Below, piece after piece: positions 6,449 through 33,930 of a DNA stretch of 64,000 nucleotides. Position 1 is the first letter of the stretch. Every line of letters starts with the position of its first letter. The translations under genes were made by a program, and so were the position numbers. The notes beneath the pieces are model-generated. The model had not been told where the DNA came from, ran no database searches, and worked only from the letters and a program-made list of their open reading frames with translations. The stretch is from Thermoplasmatota archaeon (GTDB lineage: Archaea > Thermoplasmatota > Penumbrarchaeia > Penumbrarchaeales > Penumbrarchaeaceae), in assembly GCA_965234725.1 (NCBI GenBank), contig CBDDUX010000007.1, forward strand, positions 63,293 through 127,292, read 5' to 3'.

Positions 6449-9400
6449 ATGAAGCAAAGGTTTCCCATTGTAATGAGCCTTCTATTGGTAATATTGATGG
6501 CATTTCCGATCCTTCCGTTCTCGGGAGGAGAGGAGGTCAGATCAACGGATGGAACACCCTCGAGATACGGATTCACACCCGTCCTCTATGCGGTAGAGGA
6601 TCCTGATTCCGAGGTGATCTGCGTTGATAGCGGTGATTTCGACAAGGTTAACAACGATGATGTTGTCATCGGATTGAAGGATTCCATTCAGGTCCTGAAA
6701 AACAACGGAGCATCCGGATCTTCCTTCGATTTCGATCTTCACCAGACCATTTCAACAACCGGGTTCTATATAACCCGGATCAAATGGGTGGATTACGATA
6801 ACGATAATGATCTTGATATAGTAGCTCTGGGACAGGGGGAGTATTTCATGTATGGTGATCCCACATCCGTTACTACTCCTCTTGGTCCATCTATTTTCGA
6901 TATGAAGATCTTCTACATTGAAAACCAGTTGGGCACATTCACGGAGGAGGATTCGGAACTTTTTGAAGATGCTTATTCCTACCTCAATCTCTGGTATTAT
7001 TCCGACTGCAAGTTCGATATGGACTGCGGTGATGTGGACGGCGACGGCGACCTCGATACAATGATAGCCTACGTTGCAGATACTAATACCGGCACCATAG
7101 GAGGGGAGCGGATCTACTTCAAGCTGATCGATTACAAACCAGGGAACCTCACCAACTCAACCATCCAGCAGGTGACCTTGACCGCTATTGCGGATATGAA
7201 CCCCCTTGTGAGGCTTGCCGATTTCGATGCCGACGGCAATCTTGACATGGTCTATTCCTACGGAGGCGTGGCAGGAGGCAATATACTTGAGGCCAGGCTC
7301 TTCATCAAATGGCATACCGGTGTGGGAGCTGCCTGGGGGAGCCCAGACGACCTGGACCCTAACCAGAACCTTCTTCAGGGAGGGATCATGGGATCCATAC
7401 CTTATGCAATAGCCGTAGGGGAATTCGCTGGCAACGACCTTCCTGATATCGCATTGACGAACAACAGGAACGGGGGAACCAACCCACCCTTCGGCGATGC
7501 AGGTGTATACCTCATCAGGTCAAAGGACAATAGGGTCTTCGAGGATCCCTATTCTGCATATTCCCAGCAGGGAGATTTCATGATAAGGGGAATGGCCGTT
7601 GGTGAGATGAGAAAACTGGGCAGGGATGACATCATCTGCTTCCAGAAGATAGATACCACATCGGATCCCGACCCCCATGATGGTATCGACCATTACGGAT
7701 TGACCCTGATCGAAGCCAGACAGGCATTCCCATACAGTTTCGATAAAATCAAGACCTTCCAGACATCAGGTTCTCTCCCCTATCAGATGATCAAGGATGT
7801 TTCAGTGGGGAATTTCGATAACGATCCTGACGGATATGATGATATTGTGTTCGTCGGGGACAAGGTTACAGTGGGTTTCACAACCTATCCTCCAAACATT
7901 CCCCCGAGCAAGGTGAGGGTAACGGTCTCTCCCACTCCTATCATCAACGATGATAAGATCGCAACGATCAACCTAACTATCGAGGACCTTGACGGATGGG
8001 ACGATCTGACCAAGATCGAGGTGGATTTCACCCCGGCAGGCCTTCCTTTTAGGGCGGTGACCAAACCCGAGAAAGATCCTAATAACACGACAATAGGGTG
8101 GTATGAGTTCACGATCCAGGTACCCCCTACCGTGAAGGAGGGGGACTATGATATCAAGTTCTACATGTACGATAAATCATCTGACCCACCTGGCAAGAAC
8201 TCCCCCAAGGCAAACGATACCTTCCTGTTCAGAGTAAAACAATACAACAGAAGACCTGAGATCGCTCTCTCCCCTGAGAACAGAACTCTTTATGTGAAGG
8301 AGGATGTACCAACATATTTTGAAAACGTCTACGACTGGTTCGTTGACTATGACATCCAGGAGGGATACTCCTCAACTCCCCTTGAGATCAAACTAAGGTC
8401 CTATCAGTCCAATTCATTCGTTGAATCGGTCACACTGAGGAATATGGATGGAGGAACGATATTCAATGTGGAAATGGTCAATGGTTCAATGGGAGATCCA
8501 TGGAACTGGTCGCTGTTGGTATCTCCCGGAAGTGATTTCCACCACTCTGCAGGTCTAAGTGATCAGCTCACAATGAGAGCATATGACGGAGCTCTCAAAA
8601 CCGATCCTCTCCTTCGTCTGAACATAGTTGTCCTCCCTGTAAACGACGATCCCTCGATCCCTGTGCAAAAAAGGTTCCCATCTGACGGACCCTTTGAGTT
8701 CTCATTGGAACAGGATGAGATAAGCGGATCCTATCCATTGAAGGCCACTGACGAAGCGGACGGGCAGACACCTTACCTCGAATATTTCTTCGAGTATGAT
8801 GATCCTGCAGACGAGGAATGGATCTACATAAGCAGAGATGGAACTGTCTCATGGTTCCCTGAAAATGATAATGTTGGACCTCACAAGATCACACTCTGGG
8901 TAACGGACGGGACCGCAAACATTTCGCAGGTGCTTTGGTTCAACGTCTCCAATGTTCTGGACAGCCCATACTTCGTCTTCGTTTCCAATGGCACGAAGAC
9001 ATTCACGAACATTCCACAACACATCCCCGCAAGGTACGAGTTCATAGTGAATGAACATGAGGAATTCAATCTCACCATAAAGGTCGAGGACCCGGACAGG
9101 ATCATCGGCCTTCAGGATGATGTCTCATTCAAGTGCAACCTGACGCTCCTCAACAACACATACCTGGATGTTGATCCGATCGATCCATTCAAAGCATACT
9201 TCCATTTCGTTGCAGAGAAGAAGTTCGGATACTATGCAACATACGAACCCTCATCCCCACCGATAGAAACTGAGATAATCGTGACCGATGGAATTGACCA
9301 GGACATTCTGATAGTGTTCCCAATAAGGATCATCATAAAGAACATCAATGATCCGCCCATACTGGTCCAGATAGAAAAACCTGAGGAAGGATACTCACAT

Positions 9401-18505: not shown

Positions 18506-20224
18506 ATGAAGGTCCTAGGGATAGAATCCACAGCTCATACCTTCGGTGCAGGTGTTGTGGAGGACGGAAAGGTCCTCTCCAACGTGAGGGATATGTATGT
18601 TCCCATGGAGGGAGGTATCCACCCCAGGGAAGCCGCGGACCATCATGTGGAAAAAGGCACCTCTGTGGTCCGGATGGCGCTAATGGAGGCAAACGTCAAT
18701 GAGAGCGAACTGGACCTGATATCGTTCTCCAGAGGGCCTGGCTTAGGGCCTTGCCTGAGGGTTGGTGCGACCATAGCCAGGGTACTATCCATCAAGAATG
18801 GGATCCCCATCGTTGGTGTCAACCACTGCGTTGCACATCTTGAGATAGGAAGATCCCTTGGAGCAAAGGACCCGGTGCTCCTTTATGCATCAGGGGGAAA
18901 CACCCAGATAATTGCGCATGTCAAGGGAAGATACCGGGTCCTTGGTGAGACCCTCGATATTGGTATCGGAAACATGCTTGACAAGATCGGAAGGGAGCTT
19001 GGGATACCCTTCCCCGCTGGACCGAAGATCGAGAAACTTGCTCGCGGAGAGACGGTCCCGGGTGTTTGGGATAAGGAGGATACTGAGGTAAAGTTCATAG
19101 AACTGCCTTATTCGGTGAAGGGTATGGATGTCTCCTTCTCAGGTGTGATGACAGCTGCCCTTTCTCTGAGGGATAAAGGTGTGGACATCCCATCCATTTG
19201 CCACTCCATCCAGGAGACATGCTTCTCCATGCTATGCGAGGTTTCGGAAAGGGCCATGGCACATCTCGGTTCTGACGAACTGCTCTTGGGAGGCGGAGTC
19301 GTTTGTAATTCCAGGCTGCAGGAAATGGCAGGGATAATGGCCAGAGAAAGAGGGGGCAGAAGCTTCGCACCTCCAATGGACCTTGCAGTTGATAATGGAG
19401 CCATGATAGCTTATCTCGGGGAGACAATGCACAGAGCGGGCATCTCCCATTCACTTGAAGAAACGGTCATTGACCAGAGGTTCAGAACGGATCAGGTAGA
19501 TGTCATCTGGAAAGATGACAAGGTCCTTACTCGGATCACGACCCCGGGGACCGTTGACCTCGATCTTGGAGAGGTCCCACCGGATGGAACCATCCTTGGA
19601 AAGGGGGCTGAGGCCGTGATCACCTCAATGGATTTTGGCGGGATACCTTCTGTCGAGAAGAAGAGGAAGCCAAAAGGATACAGGATCCCCGAATTGGACA
19701 GTCTCCTGACCTCCAGAAGGACCAGAAAGGAGGCAAAGATGTTGATGTCAATGAGGGATATCGGGATCAGGACCCCTTATCTTCTGGATATCGATCCTGA
19801 GGCTGGCCGCCTCGTCCTCGAGATGATCAGGGGACCAAGGCTTGCCTCATGCCTGAACGTCCTGTCACCTGTCCAACAGGGATCCGCGATGAGGAAAATG
19901 GGTGAGATCCTGGGCAGACTGCATGGAGCAGGTTACGTCCATGGTGATATGACAACATCCAATTTCCTGATCTCATCAATGGTCGAAGACAATATCGACC
20001 TCTGCCTCATCGACACATCATTATCCGACAGGACAGAAGAATTGGAGAGAAAGGGAGTTGACATCAGGTTGTTCACAGAGGTCTTCTCATCGACCCATCC
20101 ACAACTGATGGACATAGAGGATCTCTTCTTGGAAGGATATATCAAGTCCAATCCAGGATCTCATGAGGTTCTGAAGAAGGTAGAGGAGATCAATTCCAGA
20201 GGCAGATACATGTCACAGGTTTGA
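18506..20224 (+). CDS. kae1: Bifunctional Kae1-Bud32 (t6A threonylcarbamoyltransferase / KEOPS kinase)
   Basis: LGIESTAHT, GPGLGPCL, VNHCVAHLE, DNGAMIA, QRFRTD; kinase half KGAEA, HGDMTTSN, RGRY. Confidence 0.96.
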   Translation: MKVLGIESTAHTFGAGVVEDGKVLSNVRDMYVPMEGGIHPREAADHHVEKGTSVVRMALMEANVNESELDLISFSRGPGLGPCLRVGATIARVLSIKNGIPIVGVNHCVAHLEIGRSLGAKDPVLLYASGGNTQIIAHVKGRYRVLGETLDIGIGNMLDKIGRELGIPFPAGPKIEKLARGETVPGVWDKEDTEVKFIELPYSVKGMDVSFSGVMTAALSLRDKGVDIPSICHSIQETCFSMLCEVSERAMAHLGSDELLLGGGVVCNSRLQEMAGIMARERGGRSFAPPMDLAVDNGAMIAYLGETMHRAGISHSLEETVIDQRFRTDQVDVIWKDDKVLTRITTPGTVDLDLGEVPPDGTILGKGAEAVITSMDFGGIPSVEKKRKPKGYRIPELDSLLTSRRTRKEAKMLMSMRDIGIRTPYLLDIDPEAGRLVLEMIRGPRLASCLNVLSPVQQGSAMRKMGEILGRLHGAGYVHGDMTTSNFLISSMVEDNIDLCLIDTSLSDRTEELERKGVDIRLFTEVFSSTHPQLMDIEDLFLEGYIKSNPGSHEVLKKVEEINSRGRYMSQV

Positions 20225-20245
20225 AAATCACAGGAGTGAAGGGAA

Positions 20246-20806
20246 ATGAAGATATCATTCATAACGGGAAATACAGGAAAGATCAGGGAAATTTCCCGCT
20301 TTCTTTCGGGCTTGGACATAGAAATGATCATGGAAGAGGGACCGTTCATAGAGATACAGGCTGACTCTCTGGAAGAGGTCGTAACGACCGGTATGGAGCT
20401 ACTTACGAAGGACAGGAAGTTTGATGGACCACTGATAAAAGAGGACAGCGGATTGTTCATTTCCTCCCTGAATGGTTTTCCCGGTGTCTATTCGGCATAT
20501 GTACAGAAAACCATTGGCAATAAGGGGATCCTCTCCTTGATGAAGGATGAAAGAAAGAGGGATGCCGTATTCAGAACGGTCATAGGGCTCATGATACCCG
20601 GAGAAGGACTTTCACTTTTCAGAGGAGAATGCAAGGGAACCATTGCATTTGAGGAGAGGGGGAGACAGGGTTTCGGTTATGATCCCATATTCATTCCTCA
20701 AGGAGAAGAGCTGACATTTGCAGAGATGAGTTTGGATGAAAAGAACGGGATAAGCCACAGGACAATGGCCGTTCAAAGAATGGTGGAGTTCCTGAAGAAG
20801 AGGTGA
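20246..20806 (+). CDS. rdgB: RdgB/HAM1-family non-canonical purine NTP pyrophosphatase
   Basis: TGNTGK, EDSGL, FPGVYS, GFGYDPIF, KNGISHR. Confidence 0.95.
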   Translation: MKISFITGNTGKIREISRFLSGLDIEMIMEEGPFIEIQADSLEEVVTTGMELLTKDRKFDGPLIKEDSGLFISSLNGFPGVYSAYVQKTIGNKGILSLMKDERKRDAVFRTVIGLMIPGEGLSLFRGECKGTIAFEERGRQGFGYDPIFIPQGEELTFAEMSLDEKNGISHRTMAVQRMVEFLKKR

Positions 20807-21118
20807 TCATGGTATCTCGCAGTTCAGAAGGACCTGAAGTATGCCCTCCTTCACCTGTTCTGCCGATTCATGCGTCTCTTCGATGTGGACCCTTTCCTTA
20901 TGTGCCTTCAACTGGTCCATTATCTCGTTGAAACAGACAACCTCGGACCGGGTCACACGTCTTACCGGAACCCTCTCAAGGGCAATGTCGTCCACCTCTA
21001 TGTCATATTTCAGGTGGCAGAAGTTCAGGACCGCGTCATCCTCACCGGTAAAGAACCCCAATGTCCTATGGGTGGAGGTCTGGTAGGTCCTGAATATTGT
21101 CAAGGTCCGTCCTTCCAT
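20807..21118 (-). CDS. Hypothetical protein
   Basis: 103-aa ORF filling the gap, abutting rdgB tail-to-tail, with a TATA-like TTAATATAT upstream; no motif recognised. Confidence 0.55.
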   Translation of the reverse strand: MEGRTLTIFRTYQTSTHRTLGFFTGEDDAVLNFCHLKYDIEVDDIALERVPVRRVTRSEVVCFNEIMDQLKAHKERVHIEETHESAEQVKEGILQVLLNCEIP

Positions 21119-21120
21119 GG

Positions 21121-21280
21121 TATTCCACTGGAGATCAATATATTAAGCGGTAACAGGGGAGGTCCCCGAGAGGACCCCACCCCTCCATTTCCAGTGGAAT
21201 AATGATCCAATCGACTTAAGAAACAAGTTAAAAAATTCCATGATCATTATCTACTCAAAGATCGATATTACAGTGGAAAC
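21121..21280. other. Cluster of three ORB-like elements; candidate replication origin
   Basis: TATTCCACTGGAGAT (+, 21121-21135); TATTCCACTGGAAATGGAGGGGTGGGG with G-string (-, 21175-21201); TATTACAGTGGAAAC (+, 21266-21280). Matches the euryarchaeal ORB pattern TTCCAsTGGAAA-N-GGGG. Confidence 0.65.
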
Positions 21281-21314
21281 CTTCTTGAAACATGAATCGA
21301 ATATACTAACCGAG

Positions 21315-22649
21315 ATGAGGATAGGGATTTCGGAGATCATTCTCTACCATCTGAAAAATACCAAAGGTGGAAGGATCAATTACTCGGGTCTTGAAAGACT
21401 TCCCGCAGTCCTGGGAAGAAGCAGAAAAACCCTGATGAACAACATAAGTCTCCTCACACGGGAGGGATATCTCGATTCATCAAGGGATCCAGGTAACAAA
21501 TGGTTATATCTAACAGATAAAGGATTGGAAAAATATCAACGCCTTTTTAATGGGCTGGAAGAACTCTACTTTACCAGAGAAAATCACGGCATATCAGAGG
21601 ACATGAAATTATTGGCTGTCCTGAACCGTTTCAGGGATCCTGAATTCGGTACCTTTCTTCTATCCCTGTTCATAGCAAAGAAGGAATTCGACCTGTTATC
21701 GACTTTGAAGGGAGTCGGTCTTATTGAAAATGACACCTCTCCCTTCCTCATTTTTTCGAATACGGGCCATTCACAGAAGGCAAGGGATATCTTCTCATCG
21801 GCGTTCTACAGATACACCTATCTTGGAGATGCAAATGAATCGAATATTGATTTCGACACACTGGAAGGTGTTCTGGTCCATGCGGAAACACTCCGGCGAA
21901 AAGGCGAATACGGTAATGCGATGGGGCTGTATGAATCGTTGATCTCAAGGTCGGATCTTTCCCGAAATATATGGTTTCTGGCAAATATCGGGATCGTTCA
22001 CTGCATCAAGCGAAAGGGAGATCCACTCGAAGCATTGAAACATCTTGAAATGGTGGAAGGAAAAATCGAGGATCGTCTGAAATTGGCCTATCTCAACGAG
22101 GTTAAGGCCGATATAATGATACTGGTCGGCGATCATGAAGAAGCGGAGAGGTTGTTCAGAAGCAGTGTATCGACTTTCGAACATTACAAACATTCTCTCC
22201 TTCTATTCGTGGGTTACAACAACTGGGGTGTTTTGAGGTACAATTCGGGAAGTTATGAATTGGCGGAAAAGATGTGGAAAAAGGCCCGAATCCATGCAAA
22301 TGATGCAAGAAGCGAGCCTGCAAGGGCGATCGTTCTATGCAATCTCTCCTCGATCGACTCATACAACAACCGATTTGAGGATGCAGAGAGGAAACTGAAG
22401 AGGGCTGAGGACATCTATACCAAGAGGAAGGATCTGGAAGGCATCTCACTGGTCGAGTATAACAGGGCAATTTTGTATCTGGAGAAAGGAATGATCGACC
22501 ATGCCTTTGATCATTATACAAGGTCATTCAAGATCGCGTATCCTCTTCCTTTCGAGCTCGAAAAAATGGAACGGAAAAAGCAGTTCAATGTAAGGACCAT
22601 GCGAAAGCTTTATATCGGGGTCGGCTGCCGTCGGGAAAAACTCGGGTAA
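21315..22649 (+). CDS. Winged-helix plus TPR-repeat putative transcriptional regulator (ORF open from 21240)
   Basis: LGRSRKTLMNNISLLTREGYL...LYLTDKG (MarR-like wHTH); TPR helices such as YNNWGVLRYNSGSYELAEKMWKKA and EYNRAILYLEKGMIDHAFDHYTRS. Confidence 0.8.
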   Translation: MRIGISEIILYHLKNTKGGRINYSGLERLPAVLGRSRKTLMNNISLLTREGYLDSSRDPGNKWLYLTDKGLEKYQRLFNGLEELYFTRENHGISEDMKLLAVLNRFRDPEFGTFLLSLFIAKKEFDLLSTLKGVGLIENDTSPFLIFSNTGHSQKARDIFSSAFYRYTYLGDANESNIDFDTLEGVLVHAETLRRKGEYGNAMGLYESLISRSDLSRNIWFLANIGIVHCIKRKGDPLEALKHLEMVEGKIEDRLKLAYLNEVKADIMILVGDHEEAERLFRSSVSTFEHYKHSLLLFVGYNNWGVLRYNSGSYELAEKMWKKARIHANDARSEPARAIVLCNLSSIDSYNNRFEDAERKLKRAEDIYTKRKDLEGISLVEYNRAILYLEKGMIDHAFDHYTRSFKIAYPLPFELEKMERKKQFNVRTMRKLYIGVGCRREKLG

Positions 22650-23261
22650 ACTCAAATAGACTCCCGGGTTGATCGCATCCGGTGAAGGGAAAATGGATAG
22701 ATACACCGGCATCATGCTCTCGATCCTAATTTCTGCTGCTTGTATTCTAATAATGTTCGCAAACGATTCGTCCGGGACTCCCGCACAATCCAAAAAAGCG
22801 ATAATCATTGTATCTTCCTCGAACGGTGAAAATCAATATGAGATAGACAAGGCGATCTGTTTCTTGGAATACCTGATCGATGATGGATATGAAGAAGAAG
22901 ATATCGATCTGATATCAGCGGGAGATTCTGAATACATAGATTCCATAGATTCGTTATCAAACATCAACGCATCATTTTCCGATCTGATATCCGAATCCGA
23001 CGAGGATACTGAGGTGGTTGTTTACATCTCGGACAACGGCCACGCTGAAAACGGTTACCCTTCTCTATGGTTCATGGACGGGAATATCTCGGGAATCCAG
23101 TTCGATTCATGGTTCGATGAGATAACATGTTCCGAATTCACATTCATTATAGGAGGAAACAGGTCCGGAATAATCGGACCGGATGTAGCCGATCCCTCAA
23201 GAACAGTGATGAGTTCGATGAGGGGAGATCAGGTAGCATTTCCGGATCAGTTCAACATCAC
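22599..23261 (+). repeat. Direct repeat copy 1 (~660 bp: promoter, leader and most of the caspase-like gene)
   Basis: Aligns without gaps to 28993-29655 at offset 6394; includes about 150 identical bases near 23098-23248. Confidence 0.95.
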
Positions 23262-23385
23262 CAGGAGCTTGAAGGATCTTTCCGCTGACTCGGACAATGA
23301 CGGTGTTGTGAGCTTTGTCGAATCTTTCTGCAAGGAGGTTTTCATTCTCGGAGGAACGGGTCAGGACCCTGTTCTATTCAATTGA
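22693..23385 (+). CDS. Secreted caspase/legumain (clan CD)-fold protein, probably catalytically inactive; copy 1
   Basis: N-terminal hydrophobic signal; KKAIIIV strand; VVYISDNG (cf. FxYFSDHG); IIGGNRSG (cf. IIDACxSG); ADSDNDGVVSFVESF and QDP tail typical of caspase-like domains. Confidence 0.7.
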   Translation: MDRYTGIMLSILISAACILIMFANDSSGTPAQSKKAIIIVSSSNGENQYEIDKAICFLEYLIDDGYEEEDIDLISAGDSEYIDSIDSLSNINASFSDLISESDEDTEVVVYISDNGHAENGYPSLWFMDGNISGIQFDSWFDEITCSEFTFIIGGNRSGIIGPDVADPSRTVMSSMRGDQVAFPDQFNITRSLKDLSADSDNDGVVSFVESFCKEVFILGGTGQDPVLFN

Positions 23386-23425
23386 CAATCCATGATTCAT
23401 CATGGGAAAATATGAGGTGAAGAAG

Positions 23426-24781
23426 ATGAAAGGGAAATATGCATTCATTGCACTGGTCCTTGCCGGGATCCTTGTTCTGGTCATACCTGGACAGATTGCG
23501 GCATGGAGAAATACGGGAAGTTATCCGGTAACACTGGATAATTCGAACAACGACTGCAGATATCCTGCCTCGTACAACATTCAGAACATCGATTACGTAA
23601 CTTGGCAACAATGGGATTCATCCAATTCCAATTGGAATATCTATTTCAGTTGGGGTTATGATACAAATTGGGCTCCAGCTGTTCCTTATAAAATTACTAA
23701 TAATGGTATCTGGGGTAACAATGATTATGATAATACTCATCCAGATATCTGTGCCTATTGGGAAGGTCATGATGAGGAATGGCATGCGGTATATATTGCA
23801 TGGCAATTCTGGGACCAATCCCGAGGATGTTGGGAAATTGAAACTTGCAGAATAACCATCGATTATTCCGGTGGTGGACTGGGAATGATTTCCTCAATAA
23901 ATTATGGCAAAGCAAGTGATAACGATTATGATGATTCAATACTTCCGGCAATTGATTGCAACTGGAATGTATTTCTTGCATGGGAAGATTATCGCAATGA
24001 TACTGCTGAGATCTACTTTGATCACTCAATAGATGGATATACATGGTATCATGATACATTCTGGTCGGAGACAAATGGAATTGATCGGATAGCAGATGCC
24101 AATGAATTGGAAGCAAATAGTATGGACCCTTGCATTGCTGTTGAAGATGTTGGTGGATTTAACCCCGATTTCGAACAAGTATGTGTTCTCTGGGAAGAAT
24201 ATGATTCAGGAACATCACAGATATGGCAGCACACCATTTTCTGGGGACCTGCTGGTAATTACTCTTCATTCTATCAAAGTTGCTGTCAAGTCAACAATGG
24301 AATGACGCAGAATACCGAACTTGATCCTGATATTGAGGATTTCTATGACGAATTCTTATATGTATGGTCAGATGACCGTGATGGCAACTGGGAGATATAC
24401 GAAGGAAAGACCTGGTTCAATGTAGCAGCAAATCCAGTAAGCTGGTTCACTCGGAGAGTAACAAATGACATGGATGATGATGAACATCCAGCAATCGACC
24501 TGTCGGTGAATAATTCAGGAGGTCAACCCACAAAGGAAATACTGATATCATGGGATACTGACAGGAGTGGTAACGGTGATATCTATGCATGCAGAGGTAT
24601 CCAAAATCTTGGAGCTGCAGATACTCTATACTGTTCTGGGCAGGGATTGAGTGATTCAAGAGTGTCTTTCACGAACAATCTGGATGACTTCTCAGACATC
24701 ACCACTTACAATGGAGTAGGATATTGTGTATGGGAACAAGCCGCCAATCCATGGGATATTCTCTACACAAGAGACCCATGA
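23426..24781 (+). CDS. Secreted acidic beta-propeller-like repeat protein, no membrane anchor
   Basis: Signal peptide after GAGGTGA RBS; repeated P-x-I...(V/A)W-x-D-x-R-x-G-x-x-(E/D)IY units. Confidence 0.7.
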   Translation: MKGKYAFIALVLAGILVLVIPGQIAAWRNTGSYPVTLDNSNNDCRYPASYNIQNIDYVTWQQWDSSNSNWNIYFSWGYDTNWAPAVPYKITNNGIWGNNDYDNTHPDICAYWEGHDEEWHAVYIAWQFWDQSRGCWEIETCRITIDYSGGGLGMISSINYGKASDNDYDDSILPAIDCNWNVFLAWEDYRNDTAEIYFDHSIDGYTWYHDTFWSETNGIDRIADANELEANSMDPCIAVEDVGGFNPDFEQVCVLWEEYDSGTSQIWQHTIFWGPAGNYSSFYQSCCQVNNGMTQNTELDPDIEDFYDEFLYVWSDDRDGNWEIYEGKTWFNVAANPVSWFTRRVTNDMDDDEHPAIDLSVNNSGGQPTKEILISWDTDRSGNGDIYACRGIQNLGAADTLYCSGQGLSDSRVSFTNNLDDFSDITTYNGVGYCVWEQAANPWDILYTRDP

Positions 24782-24798
24782 TGGCATGAATAATAATG

Positions 24799-24832
24799 AT
24801 GGGGAAATCCTCATTTAAGAGGATTTTCCCAT
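24799..24832. terminator. Intergenic hairpin (terminator or processing/stability element)
   Basis: ATGGGGAAATCCTC-atttaa-GAGGATTTTCCCAT, 14-bp stem with one G-U pair, with A/T-rich flanks that extend the pairing. Confidence 0.6.
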
Positions 24833-24912
24833 ATTATTTAATAAACTCATGATACAGGACTGAACCATAATGGTTAATAGACCAATGGAACGATAAAGAG
24901 GAGGAGTCTATT

Positions 24913-27900
24913 ATGGATTTTAGGAAAGCAATGATAATCACATTAATCTTTGTACTGCTTTCTTCGACCATTATAACTTATAATGAAAGCAGCACCGAAA
25001 ATTCATCAGAAAATAATGATACCAATGATAATTTTGAGAAAAAACATATAATTTCACCAGCAATATATAATGGAAATATCTATCACATCTCTTTTTCAGG
25101 ATCAACTTTTTCCAATCTGACACAAGCCATTGATCATTGTTCCGGTGGAGAAACTCTGATAATTGGAAACGGGACCTACGATGATCGCGTGATAATAACA
25201 GTATCCAATCTGACTATAATCGGGAATTCAACTTCAAATTGCTTATTCACAAATAACCAATCATTCACTTCAAACATAAACGTGTCCGCCAACAACTTCA
25301 CGATAATGAATATCGGATTTCTAACAAGCAATCACAACACGACATCGATCAGGTTCGGGGGAAATGATCTGAATATCTCCCACTGTTACTTCAATGGGAC
25401 AGGTTACTTCATCTCACAGGTGAATTTGTCCTCATATTCAAGAAGGATAGATATCTTCGATTGTGAATTTCATCTGGATGGTTATTACTGCAAGTCTATA
25501 TATGATAATTCTCCAAGTTTTAATATGCATATATCCAAATCATCTTTCGATTTATACGGATTCTTTTCAAGTGGTTATTATGGAATAAATACATCAAAAT
25601 TATTTATTGATGGCAATATCTTCAGAATCGAAACCTATATTACTCAAGACACTGGTGCATACAAATACAATCAAGTCGGTATTTATTTTATCCAAGGAAT
25701 AGATATTTTAATACGAGATAATTATTTCTACGGGTGGGGTAGTGCTGCGACACCATCAGGGATAAGAACTGATTACAATTCTCTTTCTCGTATATATGGA
25801 TATGAATATAAAATATTCAATTGTTCAATTGTCAATAATTTTTTCAAGGGAAACAGGAAGTTTACAAGTGCTTTGATATCTTATTGTGTAGGTGTAATTA
25901 TTTATAAAAATAATGCTGTAAGCATAAATAGTATTAGGGTGTATTATTCAATTAACATTTCTGTTCATCATAATATTGAAGGAGACTATCAAACCCTTCA
26001 TTCAAAAAATATTACAATGTATAGCAATAATATAACAATTAGCACAAGCAGATTATTAGCTTGGGGTGAACATATCTCCATTCATGATAATCAAGCTTAC
26101 CGGATCGAAGCCATGGGTGAAGATATTCAGATTTATGATAATACATTTTTAAGACATGGAATCTGGGTAAGTGATGGACACAATGTTTCTATCCAAAATA
26201 ATGAACTTCAATTCTCTGCGGGAAGGACTGGAGGTGTACAAGGGGCTATTGAGTTGTGGGGAAAGACGTGGACAGATGAACCAATGTTTATTCATTCGAA
26301 TATTACAATCAGAAATAATACAATAAATGCCAAGGGAGATCTGGTATTCACAGAATCAGTAGTCGATGGATTCGGATGTGCAGGTGTATTTCTTCAGGAT
26401 ATCAACGGTTTGACAATGGTTGATAATGAAATTAATTGCAGGGGAAGGACCGCAGAAGGGTGTCTCTTCACTCATGTTACAAACACTAACATACAAAATA
26501 ATTCTATAAAAGTGAACGGCAATTATTCTGTTGGTGTTAACATTGGAATACATGTTGAATGGGGGAATCGTATCAATTACGGACTGACCATGTATGACAA
26601 CGAGATCGTGATGGAAGGGAACAGTACAACGGCATTCAGGTTCCAGCAGAGAGTGTATGCCAATGATCTCTTCGATAACAGGGTCATTATCAACGGCGGA
26701 TTCGGTCAGAAAGTGGTGGCCGCAAAGGATGATGTTACACAATCGATTTCTTTTTCGGAAGTTATAATGAACAATACTCAAGGTTTGGAAGCTGAACTCA
26801 GTGAGGATTCGAGGCTCACTGTGATCGGAGCTCCCATCACGAATGCAACCGTTTCAAGCGATTCAAAACTGGACCTCTATCAGAACCTTGAGGTCGGAGC
26901 TAAAGATGTTTATGGAAACATCCTGGATTATGCAGACATCAAGGTCCTGAATGAAGATGATGAATACTCCACACCTGGATATGGAGGAGAGGAACCATAT
27001 CCCGGAGAACAGGGATACATAGGTCCTTTCATCGTTCATGATAGGATATTCAACGGGAAGAATTCCGCGGATATCTTCGAAACCAACTTATCAGCAAAGT
27101 ATGAGGGAGATGTTCCCTGGGAAGAATCGGTATCGATCAACATTCACGAAAACACAAGATACATATTCGAGGTTCCTGATCTGAACCAGCCTTCTATACC
27201 CAAAGGGTTGACAGGGATACCTATAGTAGGAACACAGAACATTCTGTTGGAATGGGAACCGCTTCCAAAGGATTGTCTCAATTACCAACTGGAATACAGG
27301 ATCGGAGGAAGCTGGCAGGCACTTGGAACGGTACCCCATCCTGACAAATCATTCGTTCATCTCGATCTTGACCAGGACACAACAGTTCAATATCAAATCA
27401 GAGCCTACAACGGTCATCTTTTTTCTGATTGGAGCAAGAAAATTACTGTTGTATCAGGTGATATCACACCTCCATCACAGGCGAAAGGACTGAACATCAC
27501 ATTTGTGGGATATGATTGGATAGGCATCTCATGGAACCCCAGTCTGGACCCCGATGTTGTGAATGTCAGCATCCAGGCAAGAGAGAAGGGAACAGGAACA
27601 ATTCGAAATGAAACAGTGATCGATTCCAGCGAGTATTCTGCAATAATAGGAGGACTGGAACCAGAACATAATTACGAGATGGTGATCAGGTTCATTGACG
27701 ATGCCGGATTATTCTCCATGTCATCTGTCCTGGATGCGAGAACGGATTTCATGAGAGGAAAATTGATAGTTCATGTCACATTCGCCGAAGGATCGATCTG
27801 GGATGGATACGGTTCTTCCCTGAAGGTGACATTGACGGGGGTGAATCATACCCAACCCTCTGCAAAAACCGATCAGTTCGGGACATGTACATTTGAAGGT

Positions 27901-28875
27901 CTTCACATACCAGATACGATCTCTGTAACGGTTGATCCTCCAAAAGGTCATGAAGGTACCTGGGGAAAGATAGAGGGGTATCTTCGGGTGGTTTCGAATA
28001 ATATTCATTTCCGAAAAGATAATCAGACAGAAGAGATCGATCTTGTAATGGAATACTATTCCAGAGGCATTATTGAGAAGACAGGAATGATATCCGGAAA
28101 GGTATCCTATCCCGATGAGGGAAAGATGAAAGGACAGAATGTACCAAATTCCGTTGTGGAGATCCTGTTCCTGAACGGAACGATATTCAATACAACCAAA
28201 ACGAATGTTGACGGTTATTTCGAGTTCACTGATCTGCCACTTCCCCTCAACTGCAGGATCATGGCCTATCCCAGAGAAGAGGATGGGGAAAGTTACCTGG
28301 AGAACGGATCGGAGATCCTATCAATCTCCGAGGACCTTTTCCAGGTGACAGTTGGTATTGTGTTAATATACAATCCTCCCGATGTCACTCCCGAATATGT
28401 GCAGATCCTTGGATACGGTCCTACAGGAGAGATTACAGATAATAAAATGAAAATCTTCATCGAGTTCTCCACTCCGATCAAGACCAAGGATCTTACCGAA
28501 CTGATAATAATCTCTCCTTCTCCTGATATTGTCCGGATAGACATCTCATCTGACAAGAAGACCGTTACAATAGACCATAGCGGGTTCTTGATGGAAACGA
28601 ATTACAATGTAACAGTTTCATTTCTGATCGAGTTCGAGGGTGTTGTGGGCCTCAATGAGAGTTTGGAATGGTCCTTTCAAGTTGTCAATAAAGATGACGG
28701 AGGCAATCCGGATAACAGCGATAATGATTTCAACTTCTTCCCGATCCTTGTTATCATAACTATGATTATCCTGGTAGCCGGAGGATTATTTTTCTACCTC
28801 AGAAATAATCGTAACAATACTGAAAAACCTATAATCAATGGTTATCCTGAACCATACGAGTGTTCCGAAGAATAG
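24913..28875 (+). CDS. Large anchored surface protein: parallel beta-helix repeats, two FN3 domains, Ig-like domains, TM helix
   Basis: FSNLTQAID...IGNGTY cap and IxNN repeats; LEWEP...YQIRAYN; ISWNPS...GLEPEHNY; IFIEFSTPI; TM followed by RNNR. Confidence 0.82.
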   Translation: MDFRKAMIITLIFVLLSSTIITYNESSTENSSENNDTNDNFEKKHIISPAIYNGNIYHISFSGSTFSNLTQAIDHCSGGETLIIGNGTYDDRVIITVSNLTIIGNSTSNCLFTNNQSFTSNINVSANNFTIMNIGFLTSNHNTTSIRFGGNDLNISHCYFNGTGYFISQVNLSSYSRRIDIFDCEFHLDGYYCKSIYDNSPSFNMHISKSSFDLYGFFSSGYYGINTSKLFIDGNIFRIETYITQDTGAYKYNQVGIYFIQGIDILIRDNYFYGWGSAATPSGIRTDYNSLSRIYGYEYKIFNCSIVNNFFKGNRKFTSALISYCVGVIIYKNNAVSINSIRVYYSINISVHHNIEGDYQTLHSKNITMYSNNITISTSRLLAWGEHISIHDNQAYRIEAMGEDIQIYDNTFLRHGIWVSDGHNVSIQNNELQFSAGRTGGVQGAIELWGKTWTDEPMFIHSNITIRNNTINAKGDLVFTESVVDGFGCAGVFLQDINGLTMVDNEINCRGRTAEGCLFTHVTNTNIQNNSIKVNGNYSVGVNIGIHVEWGNRINYGLTMYDNEIVMEGNSTTAFRFQQRVYANDLFDNRVIINGGFGQKVVAAKDDVTQSISFSEVIMNNTQGLEAELSEDSRLTVIGAPITNATVSSDSKLDLYQNLEVGAKDVYGNILDYADIKVLNEDDEYSTPGYGGEEPYPGEQGYIGPFIVHDRIFNGKNSADIFETNLSAKYEGDVPWEESVSINIHENTRYIFEVPDLNQPSIPKGLTGIPIVGTQNILLEWEPLPKDCLNYQLEYRIGGSWQALGTVPHPDKSFVHLDLDQDTTVQYQIRAYNGHLFSDWSKKITVVSGDITPPSQAKGLNITFVGYDWIGISWNPSLDPDVVNVSIQAREKGTGTIRNETVIDSSEYSAIIGGLEPEHNYEMVIRFIDDAGLFSMSSVLDARTDFMRGKLIVHVTFAEGSIWDGYGSSLKVTLTGVNHTQPSAKTDQFGTCTFEGLHIPDTISVTVDPPKGHEGTWGKIEGYLRVVSNNIHFRKDNQTEEIDLVMEYYSRGIIEKTGMISGKVSYPDEGKMKGQNVPNSVVEILFLNGTIFNTTKTNVDGYFEFTDLPLPLNCRIMAYPREEDGESYLENGSEILSISEDLFQVTVGIVLIYNPPDVTPEYVQILGYGPTGEITDNKMKIFIEFSTPIKTKDLTELIIISPSPDIVRIDISSDKKTVTIDHSGFLMETNYNVTVSFLIEFEGVVGLNESLEWSFQVVNKDDGGNPDNSDNDFNFFPILVIITMIILVAGGLFFYLRNNRNNTEKPIINGYPEPYECSEE

Positions 28876-28992
28876 TGATGTGATGAAGAAGAATGAAAGG
28901 ATCAGTTTATTCAATATAACTTGAGAATGCCCTTAGTATTTGAAATGGTGACATGTCTCCCTATGCTCTACACAGAGAAAAAAGAAAACACA

Positions 28993-29655
28993 ATGCAAAA
29001 GCCATATATAGGGGTCGGCCGCGAGCGGGAAAAACTCGGGTAAACTCAAATAATCTCCCGGGTTGATCGCATCCGGTGAAGGGAAAATGGATAGATACAC
29101 CGGCATCATGCTCTCGATCCTATTTTCTGCTGCTTGTATTCTAATAATGTTCGCAAACGATTCGTCCGGGACTCCCACACAATCCAAAAGGGCGATAATC
29201 ATTGTGTCTTCCTCAAATGGAGAAAACCAGTATGAGATAGACAAGGCGATCTGTTTCTTGGAATACCTCCTCGATGATGGGTACGATGAAGATGATATCG
29301 ATCTGATATCGGTGGGTGATTCGGAATACATAGATTCCATAGATTCGTTATCAAACATCAACGCATCATTTTCCGACCTGATATACGAATCCGACGAGGA
29401 TACCGAGGTAGTTATTTACATATCAGACAACGGACACGCGGAATACGGCTGCCCTTCTCTATGGTTCAGGGACGGGAATATCTCCGGAATACAGTTCGAT
29501 TCATGGTTCGATGAGATAACATGTTCCGAATTCACATTCATTATAGGAGGAAACAGGTCCGGAATAATCGGACCGGATGTAGCCGATCCCTCAAGAACAG
29601 TGATGAGTTCGATGAGGGGAGATCAGGTAGCATTTCCGGATCTGTTCAACATCAC
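28993..29655 (+). repeat. Direct repeat copy 2
   Basis: Near-identical to 22599-23261. Confidence 0.95.
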
Positions 29656-29785
29656 AAGAAGCCTCGAAGATGAAACCTCGGATACTGACGAGGACGGTGT
29701 TGTCGATTTCATTGAAGCATTCTATCACGAGAGAGATCTGCTAATCGGTTACAGTCAGACACCCTGTCTATGGACAGGACCTTGA
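29087..29785 (+). CDS. Secreted caspase/legumain-fold protein, probably inactive; copy 2
   Basis: About 13 amino-acid differences from copy 1 up to FNITRSL, then a divergent C-terminus; the same SDNG and GGNRSG motifs. Confidence 0.7.
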   Translation: MDRYTGIMLSILFSAACILIMFANDSSGTPTQSKRAIIIVSSSNGENQYEIDKAICFLEYLLDDGYDEDDIDLISVGDSEYIDSIDSLSNINASFSDLIYESDEDTEVVIYISDNGHAEYGCPSLWFRDGNISGIQFDSWFDEITCSEFTFIIGGNRSGIIGPDVADPSRTVMSSMRGDQVAFPDLFNITRSLEDETSDTDEDGVVDFIEAFYHERDLLIGYSQTPCLWTGP

Positions 29786-29808
29786 CAAAAGAATTTGGAG
29801 GAAAAGAG

Positions 29809-31473
29809 ATGAGTAACAATTTGTTAATAATCGGTGTGATGACGTTATTGTTATCCTCGGTAGTAATTGTATGGACCAGTGAAAACGTATCGGCATCGAC
29901 GACATACACAGTCAATTCTAGCGGTGGTGGTGACTTCATGACCATAACGGACGCTGTCAATGCCGCATCAGATGACGACATCATACAGGTCGCCCCCGGA
30001 ACCGGATACGTGGAAAATATCGTGATTAACAAGAAACTAACAATAGAAGGAACTGGGGGAATGCCGAAAGTTTCAGGATTGCCCATGAGTTCTTCTCCAG
30101 TGTTCGATATCAGGGTAGATGATGTCACTATCGATTATCTGGAGATAATTGGAACAAGCACATCTTCCGTTGCAGGAATCAAATCAAGCGCTTTAGCAGG
30201 TGAGGAAAATAATGTCCTCATTATCGACTGCGAGATCCATGGATTCTCCAATGGAGGATATGGTGTTTGCGTAGAAAGAAGGAATCCGGAAGATTCCTAC
30301 CCCACCCATAATGTGGTCGATCACTGCGAAATCTACGAATGCAACATCGGAATCTCGATTGAATCCGACCCTGCTGATCCTCAGATAAATTCCAATCATA
30401 TTGTCAGAAAATGTTACATCCATGACATATCCCAATTCACGGGAACAATGGGACATGGAATCTACAACCACGGTGATGAAAATACATTTGAAGACACGCA
30501 TATCTACAATTGCGGGGGTAAGGGCTTATACATTTATGATTCATATAAATGCGATGTCCTGGACAAGGATACATTCGGGTATCCTTTCTACATTCATAAT
30601 ACCAATACCGGAATTTATGTTCTTGATTGTGACGATTGCACGATCTCGGGTGATGATTCGAACAGATTGCTTAGGGTTACCGACAGTCTTGATGATGGAA
30701 TATATGTGGAGGATTCGGTGAATTGCGACCTTTATTATCTTGATATCGACGAAAACACAGGATACGGGATCTTCTTTGACGGAAGTGACAGCAACTCTTT
30801 GAGATTCAGCAGCATCACCGATAATGATTATGTCTTTGAAGGTGACCATAAGGGTAATTATCTATACCTATGTGAATCATCCACGAATTTATTGGAAGAC
30901 AATACAATTGATGAGACTTCTGGAAGTTCTTCCCTATATGTTACCTGTGGAAGTGACTATAATTATATCGACGGCAATTCGTTGGATGGAGATATTTTCA
31001 TCGGAGGTAGTGATGAGAACACGATAACCGATATGGAGTTCGATTATGTGGAAATCAATGGCGGAGAGGATAATACAATCCAATACTGCGATATTTCAAA
31101 CAGCTATGCAACACTGGTATATCTGTTCGAAGCCGATGACACATATATCTACAGGACCAATCTCGACGGAGTGGACGATGAAGATACAGGAATATATATC
31201 AAAGATTCACAAGATGTGGAAATCAGCGGCTATGAAGCAGGAGAGGATCCTTCAACTATCGAGAACTGTGATATTGTTCTCTATGTCAAATCGGAAGACA
31301 TCTCATGCTCTGTCTATTTTCATCACTATTCCATCTCTGACAGCAATGGAGGGAATAATGATATTGAACTTTATGGGACAGCATCTCAATCAACCACTGG
31401 AACCTACAATGATTTATCTGGTGGACCCGAGCATTATACTGATGCCTATAGTACGTGGACATTAGTTGTTTAG
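29809..31473 (+). CDS. Secreted right-handed parallel beta-helix (NosD/CASH-like) protein, no anchor
   Basis: Signal peptide; TVNSSGGGDFMTITDAVNAASDDDIIQVAPG cap; repeated GIY...xxCxI units; very acidic. Confidence 0.8.
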   Translation: MSNNLLIIGVMTLLLSSVVIVWTSENVSASTTYTVNSSGGGDFMTITDAVNAASDDDIIQVAPGTGYVENIVINKKLTIEGTGGMPKVSGLPMSSSPVFDIRVDDVTIDYLEIIGTSTSSVAGIKSSALAGEENNVLIIDCEIHGFSNGGYGVCVERRNPEDSYPTHNVVDHCEIYECNIGISIESDPADPQINSNHIVRKCYIHDISQFTGTMGHGIYNHGDENTFEDTHIYNCGGKGLYIYDSYKCDVLDKDTFGYPFYIHNTNTGIYVLDCDDCTISGDDSNRLLRVTDSLDDGIYVEDSVNCDLYYLDIDENTGYGIFFDGSDSNSLRFSSITDNDYVFEGDHKGNYLYLCESSTNLLEDNTIDETSGSSSLYVTCGSDYNYIDGNSLDGDIFIGGSDENTITDMEFDYVEINGGEDNTIQYCDISNSYATLVYLFEADDTYIYRTNLDGVDDEDTGIYIKDSQDVEISGYEAGEDPSTIENCDIVLYVKSEDISCSVYFHHYSISDSNGGNNDIELYGTASQSTTGTYNDLSGGPEHYTDAYSTWTLVV

Positions 31474-31507
31474 ATAAAAAAAATAGGATATCTAAGGAGA
31501 TATTATT

Positions 31508-33580
31508 ATGAAGAAAAAAAGGATTATTAAAAATATCTTTGCTACTGTTTTAATTGTATTATTTTCGTTATTAAATATATATAATACCATTGATGGGTCA
31601 GCTGGAATAATTGAAGTAGAAATAACAATCACAAGTGAAGCTTGGGTAGAAAGCATGTGCGATATTTATAAAGATCAGGTTATTTATATAAATAATAGTG
31701 GTTATCACGGAAATCCAATTTTATATAATATTACAACAGGAGAAAAAATAAATATTTTTCCAGATGTAAATAATATTCAAGATCCTAAAATATTTGGCAA
31801 TTATATAGTATGGGTAGGAAGGGAATCATATAATAGATCCATATATCTATACAATTTATTTAGTACGAATATCAAACAATTAACCCCAGATAATTATATG
31901 GCAGGAAGTCCTTCAATTTTTAATAAATATATTGTCTGGAGTGATAATCGAAACGGAAATTTTGATATCTTTCTCTATGACATATCAACATCTGAGGAAA
32001 CTCAAATAACATCAAATGAATCAAGTCAAGATGAACCGAAAATATGGGAAGACTGCATTGTTTGGATGGATAAAAGAGACGGTGAATATGATATTTTTAT
32101 GTATAATATTACAGCTGGAATCGAAACTCAGCTAACGAATGAACCGGGAGATCAACGCGACCCAATTATCTGGGAAGATATAATTGTATATTCAGATGAA
32201 GATGGTGATGATAAATTTACTACGATTTTTAATATATCTTCAAATAAAAAAAGTACTATTCCTGAATCAGTAGAACGTGATATTCATAAAGATATTGCTG
32301 TTTTCACAATGTGGGTAAATGGGTCCCTTGAGCCATATAAATACGACCTCACCACTGGGGAAAAAACGAAGATAATATCCTGGAGAGATGATTGTTTTTG
32401 TACATCCCCTGCAATATACGGAGACTGGATCGTGTGGACCGAAAACACAAACATCTATGGCTACAAGTCCCTGCTAGACACGGATGATGATGGAGTAGCG
32501 GACAAAGAGGATGCATTCCCAAAGGATCCTTCCGAATGGGATGACACCGACTCCGACGGGTGGGGAGATAATAGGGACAGGTTCCCGGAGGACCCCTACG
32601 AATGGAACGATACCGATCTGGATGGACACGGGGACAATAGTGACAAATTCCCATACAATCACTTCGAATGGAACGATACTGATTCAGACGGATATGGCGA
32701 TAATAGTGATCTATTCCCTGAGGATCCTACGGACTGGAACGACACGGACAGTGACGGCTGGGGGGACAATCGTGATAAATTCCCCAACGACCCCTTCGAA
32801 TGGAACGACACCGATTCGGACGGATATGGAGACAACACTGATCTCTTCCCAGAGGATCCCAACGATTGGAACGATACAGACCAGGACGGATACGGGGACA
32901 ATCGTGATAAATTCCCCAACGACCCATTCGAGTGGAATGATACCGATTCGGATGGATACGGAGATAATCGGGACAGGTTCCCGGAGGACCCATACGAATG
33001 GAACGATACCGACCAGGACGGATTCGGGGACAATCGTGATGAATTCCCCAACGATCCTTTCGAGTGGAATGATACCGATTCCGATGGATGGGGAGATAAC
33101 AGGGACCTTTTCCCTGAAGATCCTCTGGAGTGGAATGATACGGATTCGGATGGATACGGAGACAACGGTGATCTCTATCCCGAGGACCCTCTCGAGTGGA
33201 TGGATTCGGATGAGGATGGGTGGGGAGACAATAGAGATCTGTTTCCAAATGATCCGCTGGAATGGAATGACACTGATAACGATGGTTTCGGAGATAATTC
33301 TGATGCATTCCCGGAGGACCCCGCTGCATCAATAGATACCGATGGCGACGGCTACCCCGACAGCTGGAACGAAGGAATGACTGAAAGCGATTCCACAACT
33401 GGACTCGTTCTCGACACGTTCCCGGAGGATCCGGAGAGATGGAAAGAGAAAGATGACGAGGACAAAAACGGTATCAACTGGACAATCCTCATGATCCCCA
33501 TCATCTCGATACTGATCATCATGGGGATCCTTGTATTCCTCTTCACAAGGAACAGGGGAAAAGATACCGATGAGGAATAG
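31508..33580 (+). CDS. Anchored surface protein: archaeal beta-propeller plus TSP3-like tandem repeats plus TM helix
   Basis: IVWSDNRNGNFDIFLYD and IVWMDKRDGEYDIFMYN blades; 22-aa repeats; TM followed by RNRGK. Confidence 0.85.
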   Translation: MKKKRIIKNIFATVLIVLFSLLNIYNTIDGSAGIIEVEITITSEAWVESMCDIYKDQVIYINNSGYHGNPILYNITTGEKINIFPDVNNIQDPKIFGNYIVWVGRESYNRSIYLYNLFSTNIKQLTPDNYMAGSPSIFNKYIVWSDNRNGNFDIFLYDISTSEETQITSNESSQDEPKIWEDCIVWMDKRDGEYDIFMYNITAGIETQLTNEPGDQRDPIIWEDIIVYSDEDGDDKFTTIFNISSNKKSTIPESVERDIHKDIAVFTMWVNGSLEPYKYDLTTGEKTKIISWRDDCFCTSPAIYGDWIVWTENTNIYGYKSLLDTDDDGVADKEDAFPKDPSEWDDTDSDGWGDNRDRFPEDPYEWNDTDLDGHGDNSDKFPYNHFEWNDTDSDGYGDNSDLFPEDPTDWNDTDSDGWGDNRDKFPNDPFEWNDTDSDGYGDNTDLFPEDPNDWNDTDQDGYGDNRDKFPNDPFEWNDTDSDGYGDNRDRFPEDPYEWNDTDQDGFGDNRDEFPNDPFEWNDTDSDGWGDNRDLFPEDPLEWNDTDSDGYGDNGDLYPEDPLEWMDSDEDGWGDNRDLFPNDPLEWNDTDNDGFGDNSDAFPEDPAASIDTDGDGYPDSWNEGMTESDSTTGLVLDTFPEDPERWKEKDDEDKNGINWTILMIPIISILIIMGILVFLFTRNRGKDTDEE
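32510..33367 (+). repeat. Coding tandem repeat, 66 bp x 12 plus one degenerate unit
   Basis: Unit DxFPxDPxEWNDTDxDGxGDNx counted by hand. Confidence 0.93.
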
Positions 33581-33638
33581 AGGACCATGTCAAGGATTGA
33601 TGAGTATGAAGATCCTTTCATACATCAAAAAGAATAAA

Positions 33639-33656
33639 TGTAAGACATGTCTTACA
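33639..33656. promoter_or_regulatory. Perfect 18-bp palindrome, likely antitoxin operator
   Basis: TGTAAGACATGTCTTACA between TATA-like AATAAAT and the ATG of the AbrB-type gene. Confidence 0.65.
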
Positions 33657-33672
33657 CATCATTGGTAATCAA

Positions 33673-33930
33673 ATGCATGCATCAATAATCAGGGTATCAT
33701 CCAAGGGCCAGATAGTCATACCTGCTTCATGGAGGAAGAGCATGGATGTCATTGAAGGCGAGGAACTCATAGCTATCTGTGACGGTGACACATTGATGAT
33801 AAAGAAGATCAGTTCCACATCCCTGAAAAAGGAATTCGATGACACCACCAGGGCCATAAGAGAACGTATAGAGAATTCGGATGTGACGAGAGAGGATGTG
33901 AAGAAAGCCATCAAGAAGGCAAGGGATTGA
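33673..33930 (+). CDS. AbrB/MazE/SpoVT-family DNA-binding protein (antitoxin)
   Basis: RVSSKGQIVIPASWRKSMDVIEGEEL...TLMIKK. Confidence 0.9.
   Translation: MHASIIRVSSKGQIVIPASWRKSMDVIEGEELIAICDGDTLMIKKISSTSLKKEFDDTTRAIRERIENSDVTREDVKKAIKKARD

Follow-up and report, generated by a model that had tools for sequence, protein, structure and literature searches.

Origin recognition box-type dyads on the predicted promoter of a small-protein gene in a Penumbrarchaeaceae genome, with a likely replication origin on a different contig

A cdc6/orc1 gene beside the origin is usual at archaeal oriC of the Orc1-1 type, and it is not obligatory: the oriC of Archaeoglobus fulgidus has no initiator gene adjacent to it. 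Several further systems concern origin recognition boxes (ORBs) or origins that stand apart from initiator genes. The oriC of H. butylicus lacks an adjacent initiator gene (10.64898/2026.08.15.744077). In Methanomassiliicoccales paired ORBs flank orc1/cdc6.1, and the lone ORB3 and ORB4 of Ca. M. intestinalis lie far from cdc6 (PMC4153887). In Haloarcula hispanica, oriC2D packs 11 ORBs into 722 bp immediately behind cdc6E (PMC3936714). The dp1 accessory cluster of Pyrococcus consists of one full ORB and mini-ORBs within a coding gene, some 1.5 kb away from oriC, with binding shown, and a genome-wide survey in Pyrococcus found essentially only oriC bound (PMC1904270). Non-origin ORB clusters and origins without cdc6 are already in print. 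Initiator-family proteins have also been linked with promoters, both through bacterial DnaA boxes at promoters, in dnaA autoregulation and at datA (cited in PMC3936714), and through Saccharolobus Orc1-2, which is described as a non-initiator paralogue and a transcription regulator (PMC9738581, PMC12490963). In the literature searched, whose coverage was partial, no paper was found on promoter ORB sites or on a cdc6-less origin in the group considered here.

The window analysed is a stretch of 64,000 nucleotides (G000:C7:63293-127292) from a Penumbrarchaeaceae genome, G000 (3,535,829 bp in 114 contigs, 97.65% complete). Comparisons were made within its genus, g1, to which G003 and G004 also belong, and across the family. 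A sequence-only reading had described three similar 15-mers, which lie at least 42 kb from each end of contig C7, as a candidate oriC or Orc1-bound site uncoupled from its initiator gene. The 15-mers are present as described, and a genome search with the degenerate 15-mer returns three exact matches, all at this site, the motif having been derived post hoc from these copies. The features of the locus, in window coordinates, are the following.

18506-20224, plus strand: kae1-bud32 fusion, with PF00814 and kinase-like matches.
20246-20806, plus strand: rdgB/Ham1 non-canonical purine NTP pyrophosphatase (PF01725), convergent with the 103-aa gene.
20807-21118, minus strand: 103-aa gene, detected in 20 of 23 family relatives, its predicted promoter bearing boxes 1 and 2.
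21121-21135, plus strand: box 1, TATTCCACTGGAGAT, an ORB-core dyad that lacks a G-string and sits between the ATG of the 103-aa gene and its TATA-like box.
21139-21146, minus strand: TATA-like box TTAATATA of the inferred promoter of the 103-aa gene, identical at 7 of 7 positions in G003 and G004 over 21141-21147.
21157-21177, minus strand: tandem GC-rich upstream element, GGGnnnCCC-nn-GGGAYNTCCC, in an activator-like position.
21178-21201, minus strand: box 2, a full ORB (dyad at 21187-21201, TATTCCACTGGAAAT, then GGAGGGGTGGGG), its G-string GGAGGGGT aimed at box 1 and the gene.
21207-33927, no strand: variable segment, absent from G004, which parts the 103-aa gene from DUF373 (34499-35587).
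21266-21280, plus strand: box 3, TATTACAGTGGAAAC, an ORB-core dyad that also lacks a G-string, lying within the variable segment at 35 bp upstream of the wHTH-TPR gene.
21315-22649, plus strand: winged-helix-like and TPR (wHTH-TPR) gene, divergent from the 103-aa gene, its start inferred from the G003 orthologue, with TPR Pfam matches and weak HTH matches.

The three boxes are non-random. With up to one mismatch, TTCCASTGGAA matches the window six times, against 1.75 +/- 1.36 times in 100 shuffles, none of which reaches six, and three of the six matches fall within 156 bp. Dyads with one mismatch occur at 0.11 per kb in the genome, where a group of at least three dyads (up to one mismatch) inside 160 bp is found at this site only; a Poisson estimate gives about 0.06 expected. 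Four TTCGAnTGGAA look-alikes at window positions 32663-33069, spaced 132 bp apart in a 690-aa ORF (31508-33580), were set aside as a coding repeat and not ORBs, and an apparent excess of dyads between genes across the genome was disregarded, since the crude ORF caller pushes gene starts into intergenic DNA. One contig from a sequencing run (171 nt; four runs were compared) spans 21121-21291 with six differences, three of them listed and none of those listed inside the dyads; it was not used as support.

Box 2 stands apart from its neighbours. A 28-column ORB matrix was built from 24 boxes at the relatives' origin loci (15 of 17 loci contributed), with G000 held out. In G000 this matrix places a site at C109:19354 first (30.5) and box 2 second (25.8), the next site scoring 18.3, and it gives boxes 1 and 3 scores of -2.4 and -2.8. 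On these scores boxes 1 and 3 are classed as bare dyads and box 2 as a full ORB, and the earlier description of the site as ORB-like and predicted to be bound by Orc1 holds for box 2. The same box matches an ORB adjoining cdc6 in G038, and it almost equals the Methanomassiliicoccales ORB consensus (PMC4153887). The window dyad, including its variable centre, is also that of the C109 origin boxes.

The stretch between box 1 and box 2 (51 bp, 41% AT) appears to be the promoter of the 103-aa gene, its TATA box and start site being predicted ones. Read toward the gene, the order is box 2, tandem GC-rich element, TATA-like box, box 1 and ATG. In aligned relatives a TTATAT-like stretch comes after the upstream element, whose GGGAYNTCCC half lies at -48 to -59 in 21/21 family loci and in 4/4 metagenome loci, two of which share one upstream sequence. 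Box 2 has its G-string directly against the GGG that is conserved in this element. The spacer looks like a GC hairpin because of the tandem palindromic element, and a structured RNA was rejected, a search of 20000-22500 having given no Rfam match at E up to 5. Also rejected was a 110-aa plus-strand ORF across the boxes (20870-21202), a shadow frame with no NCBIfam match that is absent from the ORF listings of the G003 and G004 loci. A sigma-70 promoter scan is inapplicable to archaea. As a side observation, GGGnnnCCC-nn-GGGAYRTCCC also lies about 10 bp upstream of TATA-like boxes at G000:C99:7651, C3:26668, C3:18193, C31:31930 and C86:3976. The tandem palindrome occurs in 21 of 24 family genomes, is commoner than a reversed control, and stands before varied genes, among them a TetR regulator, an antiporter-like gene and genes for secreted proteins.

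The boxes are less widely conserved than the promoter. Among 24 loci of the 103-aa gene (L188 excluded, since it duplicates L187), box 1 with up to one mismatch follows the TATA-like box in 5 of the 8 that belong to the g1+g5 clade (support 99/99) and in none of the 16 others; the remaining three g1+g5 loci have two or three mismatches at that position. In those five loci a conserved dyad thus lies between the predicted TATA box and the start codon, a position from which repression is predicted. The boxes are missing from 16 of the 24 loci and from five of the seven genera. The box 2 dyad is found in 3 of 24 loci, all in genus g1; its carriers are three genomes, two of them about 90% identical. 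In all three (G000, G003 and G004) the dyads of boxes 1 and 2 keep an exact spacing of 66 bp. Identity of G003 to the window is 9/11 in box 1, 7/7 in the TATA-like box, 23/24 in the upstream element and 12/13 in the box 2 dyad; it is 3/7 in the flank, 2/9 in the G-string of box 2 and 24/64 in the stretch between boxes 2 and 3. Box 3 has 5/12 identity in G004, and the third dyad lies 79, 44 and 32 bp from box 2 in G000, G003 and G004.

The architecture of an origin is found on contig C109. At G000:C109:18875-19374 (L028, L058) four dyads, at 18880, 19088, 19219 and 19359, lie in a 700-bp gap with a 60-mer of 98% AT; 60-mers of at least 95% AT occur on only three contigs of the genome. The G-strings point outward, and the family consensus continues as far as GGGG-TCTCTC. 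The gap is flanked by an ArsR-type HTH gene and a convergent glycosyltransferase gene, with gltX, NAD kinase and radA nearby and no cdc6. Searches recovered the ArsR gene from 18 of 24 family genomes, and ORB dyads lie behind it in 18/18 loci (relatives L059-L075). All 14 loci of this type uncut by a contig end have a best 60-mer of 87-100% AT. Ten of the 14 have boxes scoring at least 16 on both sides with outward G-strings, and in the other four a strong box stands on a single side, these matrix scores being partly circular since the same relatives trained the matrix. Within 1.5 kb of cdc6.1, 0 of 14 family loci have an origin-like cluster; more distant relatives with ORBs beside cdc6 are G038, G030, G034 and G033. 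At 13 ArsR homologues outside the family no ORB cluster was found (best score 10.5). The C109 locus is likely the true oriC, and an origin without adjacent cdc6 would be a family trait, judging from anatomy and conservation. Its ORB(-)/DUE/ORB(+) plan with no cdc6 beside it is what C109, and not the window site, has in common with the oriC of H. butylicus (10.64898/2026.08.15.744077).

The window site compares poorly with this plan. It has one full ORB, not two of opposite polarity with outward G-strings; the sole G-string points into the pair of boxes 1 and 2, the reverse of origin geometry. No AT-rich DUE lies between the boxes, the best 60-mer at the site being 73% AT, a level reached by 2.5% of genomic 60-mers, against 98% at C109. 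Nor is the arrangement conserved in relatives, in view of the three box 2 loci and the shifting third dyad. Like the dp1 cluster of the Thermococcales, the site joins one full ORB to mini-ORBs outside the origin and is conserved in a clade; unlike dp1, where binding was shown, it sits on a promoter, its binding is a predicted one, and any other contig is at least 42 kb away, which puts it far from oriC and cdc6 rather than within a few kb of either. It resembles oriC2D of H. hispanica in consisting of ORB elements that would not act as an origin, and differs in having three boxes straddling a promoter, too few for a strong sink. ORB clusters by themselves mislead origin calls; C109 is the locus favoured by polarity, DUE and conservation. 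That the origin is uncoupled from its initiator gene accordingly looks right for the family, by way of C109, and not for the window site. The stronger cluster that the sequence-only reading had envisaged beside cdc6, as grounds for giving up its candidate, does exist, but at C109 and not beside cdc6.

Strand asymmetries at four-fold sites are small against their errors. Left of the site on C7, 40.9 kb of coding sequence lie on the plus strand against 31.3 kb on the minus strand (crude ORF calls of at least 150 aa), which removes the gene-orientation argument once offered for an origin. The four-fold-site AT-skew difference (plus-strand minus minus-strand genes) is +0.07 to the left of the site and +0.13 to the right, noisy values with no sign change, and +0.07 and -0.10 around C109, also noisy. 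Skew in 13 stretches of G004 has errors of 0.05-0.10 and makes no clean flip at the window site or at C109. Cumulative GC skew rises in the window; it is not corrected for gene orientation and was unused as evidence.

Two orc1/cdc6 paralogs are encoded in G000, on contigs C62 (cdc6.1, 6516-7931) and C66 (cdc6.2, 19844-21124), in line with the earlier remark that no such gene adjoins the site, and the 16 kb around each contain no ORB cluster (best matrix scores 2.7 and 8.1). The C62 protein matches 2V1U at E 7.8e-92, 2QBY_A at 1.7e-88 and Orc1-3 at 3.5e-35, its ISM-region and winged-helix stretches align with 2V1U and 2QBY_A, and TIGR02928 scores 378 bits on it. By these matches cdc6.1 is an Orc1-1-type protein, the cognate initiator encoded in G000. 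Relative to the same two structures it (L007:6516-7931) carries an insertion of about 45 residues past Walker A (about residues 97-141). Searches for cdc6.1 came up empty in 10 of the 24 family genomes, G007 (96% complete) among them, and no gap is shown to be a true loss; five of the ten, searched again, gave the cdc6.2 type (5/5) and otherwise no more than a fragment. The genomes without detected cdc6.1 include G007, G010, G016, G004 and G005.

On balance it is probable that Orc1/Cdc6-1 binds the ORB-type boxes on the promoter of the 103-aa gene and represses that gene, and does not start replication there. Box 2 would be the high-affinity site for Orc1/Cdc6-1, with weak or cooperative binding at boxes 1 and 3. 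Sitting on box 1, over the expected transcription start, the protein would keep RNA polymerase from loading; on box 2, where the G-string adjoins the upstream element, it would compete with the binder of that element. The site might soak up a little initiator, and replication would start at C109. The score of box 2, the kept 66-bp spacing, the clade-linked box 1, the Orc1-1-type cdc6.1, the dyads at other promoters, an origin role already filled by C109 and the documented non-origin ORBs of other archaea argue for this reading. Against it, boxes 1 and 3 are of the mini-ORB kind, and in Pyrococcus a single mini-ORB binds Cdc6 weakly and scattered ones were unoccupied in vivo (PMC1904270); the 103-aa gene has no known replication link, the boxes are missing from most of its loci, and no cdc6.1 was detected in 10 of the family genomes. 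The loss of the box 2 G-string in G003 also counts against Orc1, and fits a dimeric factor that reads only the dyad. Such a separate factor, for which TTCCAnTGGAA would be the operator, while the G-string of box 2 merely coincides with the GC-rich element, is unlikely. It would account for a dyad and a 66-bp spacing kept in G003 while the G-string was lost, for the abutment of that G-string on the conserved GGG, and for the dyads at an RNA gene on C27 and at cdc6.1 promoters, mostly without full G-strings. It leaves unaccounted for a dyad shared, variable centre included, with the origin boxes of C109, and the agreement of box 2 with the Methanomassiliicoccales consensus and with the cdc6-side ORB of G038. 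Its obvious candidate, the wHTH-TPR protein, fails as well: autoregulation was rejected on finding an upstream dyad in 1/25 other homologues against a background of 2.8% per 260 bp (26 of 30 loci used; L101, L121, L125 and L129 excluded as partial or tandem duplicates). Box 1 is also present where the neighbour is DUF373 and not wHTH-TPR.

A weak, genus-specific secondary origin, with box 2 (-) and box 3 (+) around the 64-bp, 70%-AT stretch between them, is distinctly improbable. The order is indeed ORB(-)/spacer/ORB(+), as described for origins in 10.64898/2026.08.15.744077, box 2 is a full ORB, and several origins are common in archaea (PMC6742236). Box 3, however, has no G-string and a negative score, both G-strings of H. 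hispanica oriC1 proved essential (PMC3936714), the distance of box 3 to box 2 varies, the AT level is unremarkable and the noisy AT skew keeps its sign across the site. A neutral or decaying sequence without function, made of one stray ORB and two chance look-alikes, is a reading we regard as very doubtful too. One-mismatch dyads are common enough, box 3 is unconserved and box 2 is limited to three genomes of one genus, but only about 0.06 such clusters are expected per genome, and boxes 1 and 2 have been kept while their flanks diverged, with box 1 tied to the TATA-like box across the clade. That the site is the chromosomal oriC, boxes 1 and 2 flanking an unwinding element, can hardly be maintained, even though it offers one full ORB, a uniquely tight cluster of three dyads and a genome with no ORB cluster around either cdc6. 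The G-string points into the pair, and outward at C109, at ORB1/2 of Ca. M. intestinalis (PMC4153887) and at H. hispanica oriC1 (PMC3936714); the would-be unwinding element is 41% AT and apparently a promoter; and the site is absent from most genera, with C109 showing full anatomy and family-wide conservation. The identification of this site as oriC is on these grounds not supported.

ORB-core dyads at other loci of the family bear on repression by Orc1/Cdc6-1. In 5/5 g6 genomes (L135-L139) a single dyad stands 166-173 bp ahead of the cdc6.1 match and immediately before a TATA-like stretch; in G003 and G001 (L131, L132) it lies further upstream, and at one mismatch it is absent from 7 of 14 loci, G000 among them. 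Autoregulation through this promoter dyad is possible. On contig C27 a perfect dyad at 60701, retained in G001, G003 and G004, sits at -47 of a stretch of about 870 nt that folds with z -8.4 (G000:C27:60562-61620; L231:2563-3625) and has no Rfam match at E <=0.1. RNase P and SRP RNA were rejected as its identity, both lying elsewhere in the genome. With up to two mismatches the -47 dyad is at the same place in 19/19 loci, and a second dyad lies about 140 bp further upstream in 18/19, the spacer of the pair being 57-79% AT. This pair could mark control of the RNA by the initiator, or a second origin. An AT-rich gap (85-95%) at C62:26546-27164 (L076-L086), behind a conserved serine resolvase/recombinase gene and about 19 kb from cdc6.1, also carries dyads, conserved in three g1 and two g6 genomes and found in neither G008 nor G006; it is a possible second origin.

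A wider proposal is more tentative, and we would lean against it: that the Orc1-1-type initiator is also a transcription regulator with a small regulon, comprising its own promoter, the RNA of about 870 nt and the 103-aa gene, whose product weakly recalls, in its N-terminal half, the ribosomal LX fold that G000 otherwise seems to lack, the origin having moved away from cdc6. As with bacterial DnaA and Saccharolobus Orc1-2, an initiator-family protein would act at promoters; unlike the case of Orc1-2, described as a non-initiator, the sites in the window are of the Orc1-1 origin type, and regulation is proposed here from sequence. If true, Orc1-1-type initiators on conserved promoters far from origins would amount to a DnaA-like link between replication and transcription in archaea, and the family supplies named sites at which to ask whether initiators act at promoters. 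Taken by itself, the window site would be a modest, clade-limited regulatory feature. Two side observations belong with these loci: a tRNA gene lies upstream of the C62 recombinase gene, and a perfect dyad at G000:C11:18937, between two divergent genes, is kept in G004.

The 103-aa protein was confined to the family in the searches made (18 proteins, in 4 clusters at 50% identity) and has no Pfam match and no NCBIfam match near cut-off. Its model (pLDDT 83) combines a small beta-beta-alpha-beta head with a long helix. In structure comparison (VIA) the closest matches, ribosomal chains and PaaB among them, have Z 5.0-5.5 and rmsd 2.1-2.8 over about 50 residues, and Foldseek gave ribosomal LX at E 0.45; these values lie below any reliable threshold. 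Foldseek had no match at E <=0.001 in PDB and BFVD, the Atlas matches reached at most 0.78, and no function was assigned. PF01775 is absent from G000 by profile search. That the protein is a divergent LX-like one is a lead only.

DUF373 is the usual divergent neighbour of the 103-aa gene in other genera. The alignment with G004 stops at C7:84498 and resumes at 97220, and box 3 lies inside this 12.7-kb segment. Lower in GC (36-45%), the variable segment encodes the wHTH-TPR protein and large proteins that look secreted, and it contains two genes that are near-duplicates (22669-23385 and 29063-29785). The wHTH-TPR family has 1-10 copies in 22 of 24 family genomes. In G004 the segment gives way to about 0.9 kb that contains a PIN-domain-like gene and what is left of the wHTH-TPR start.
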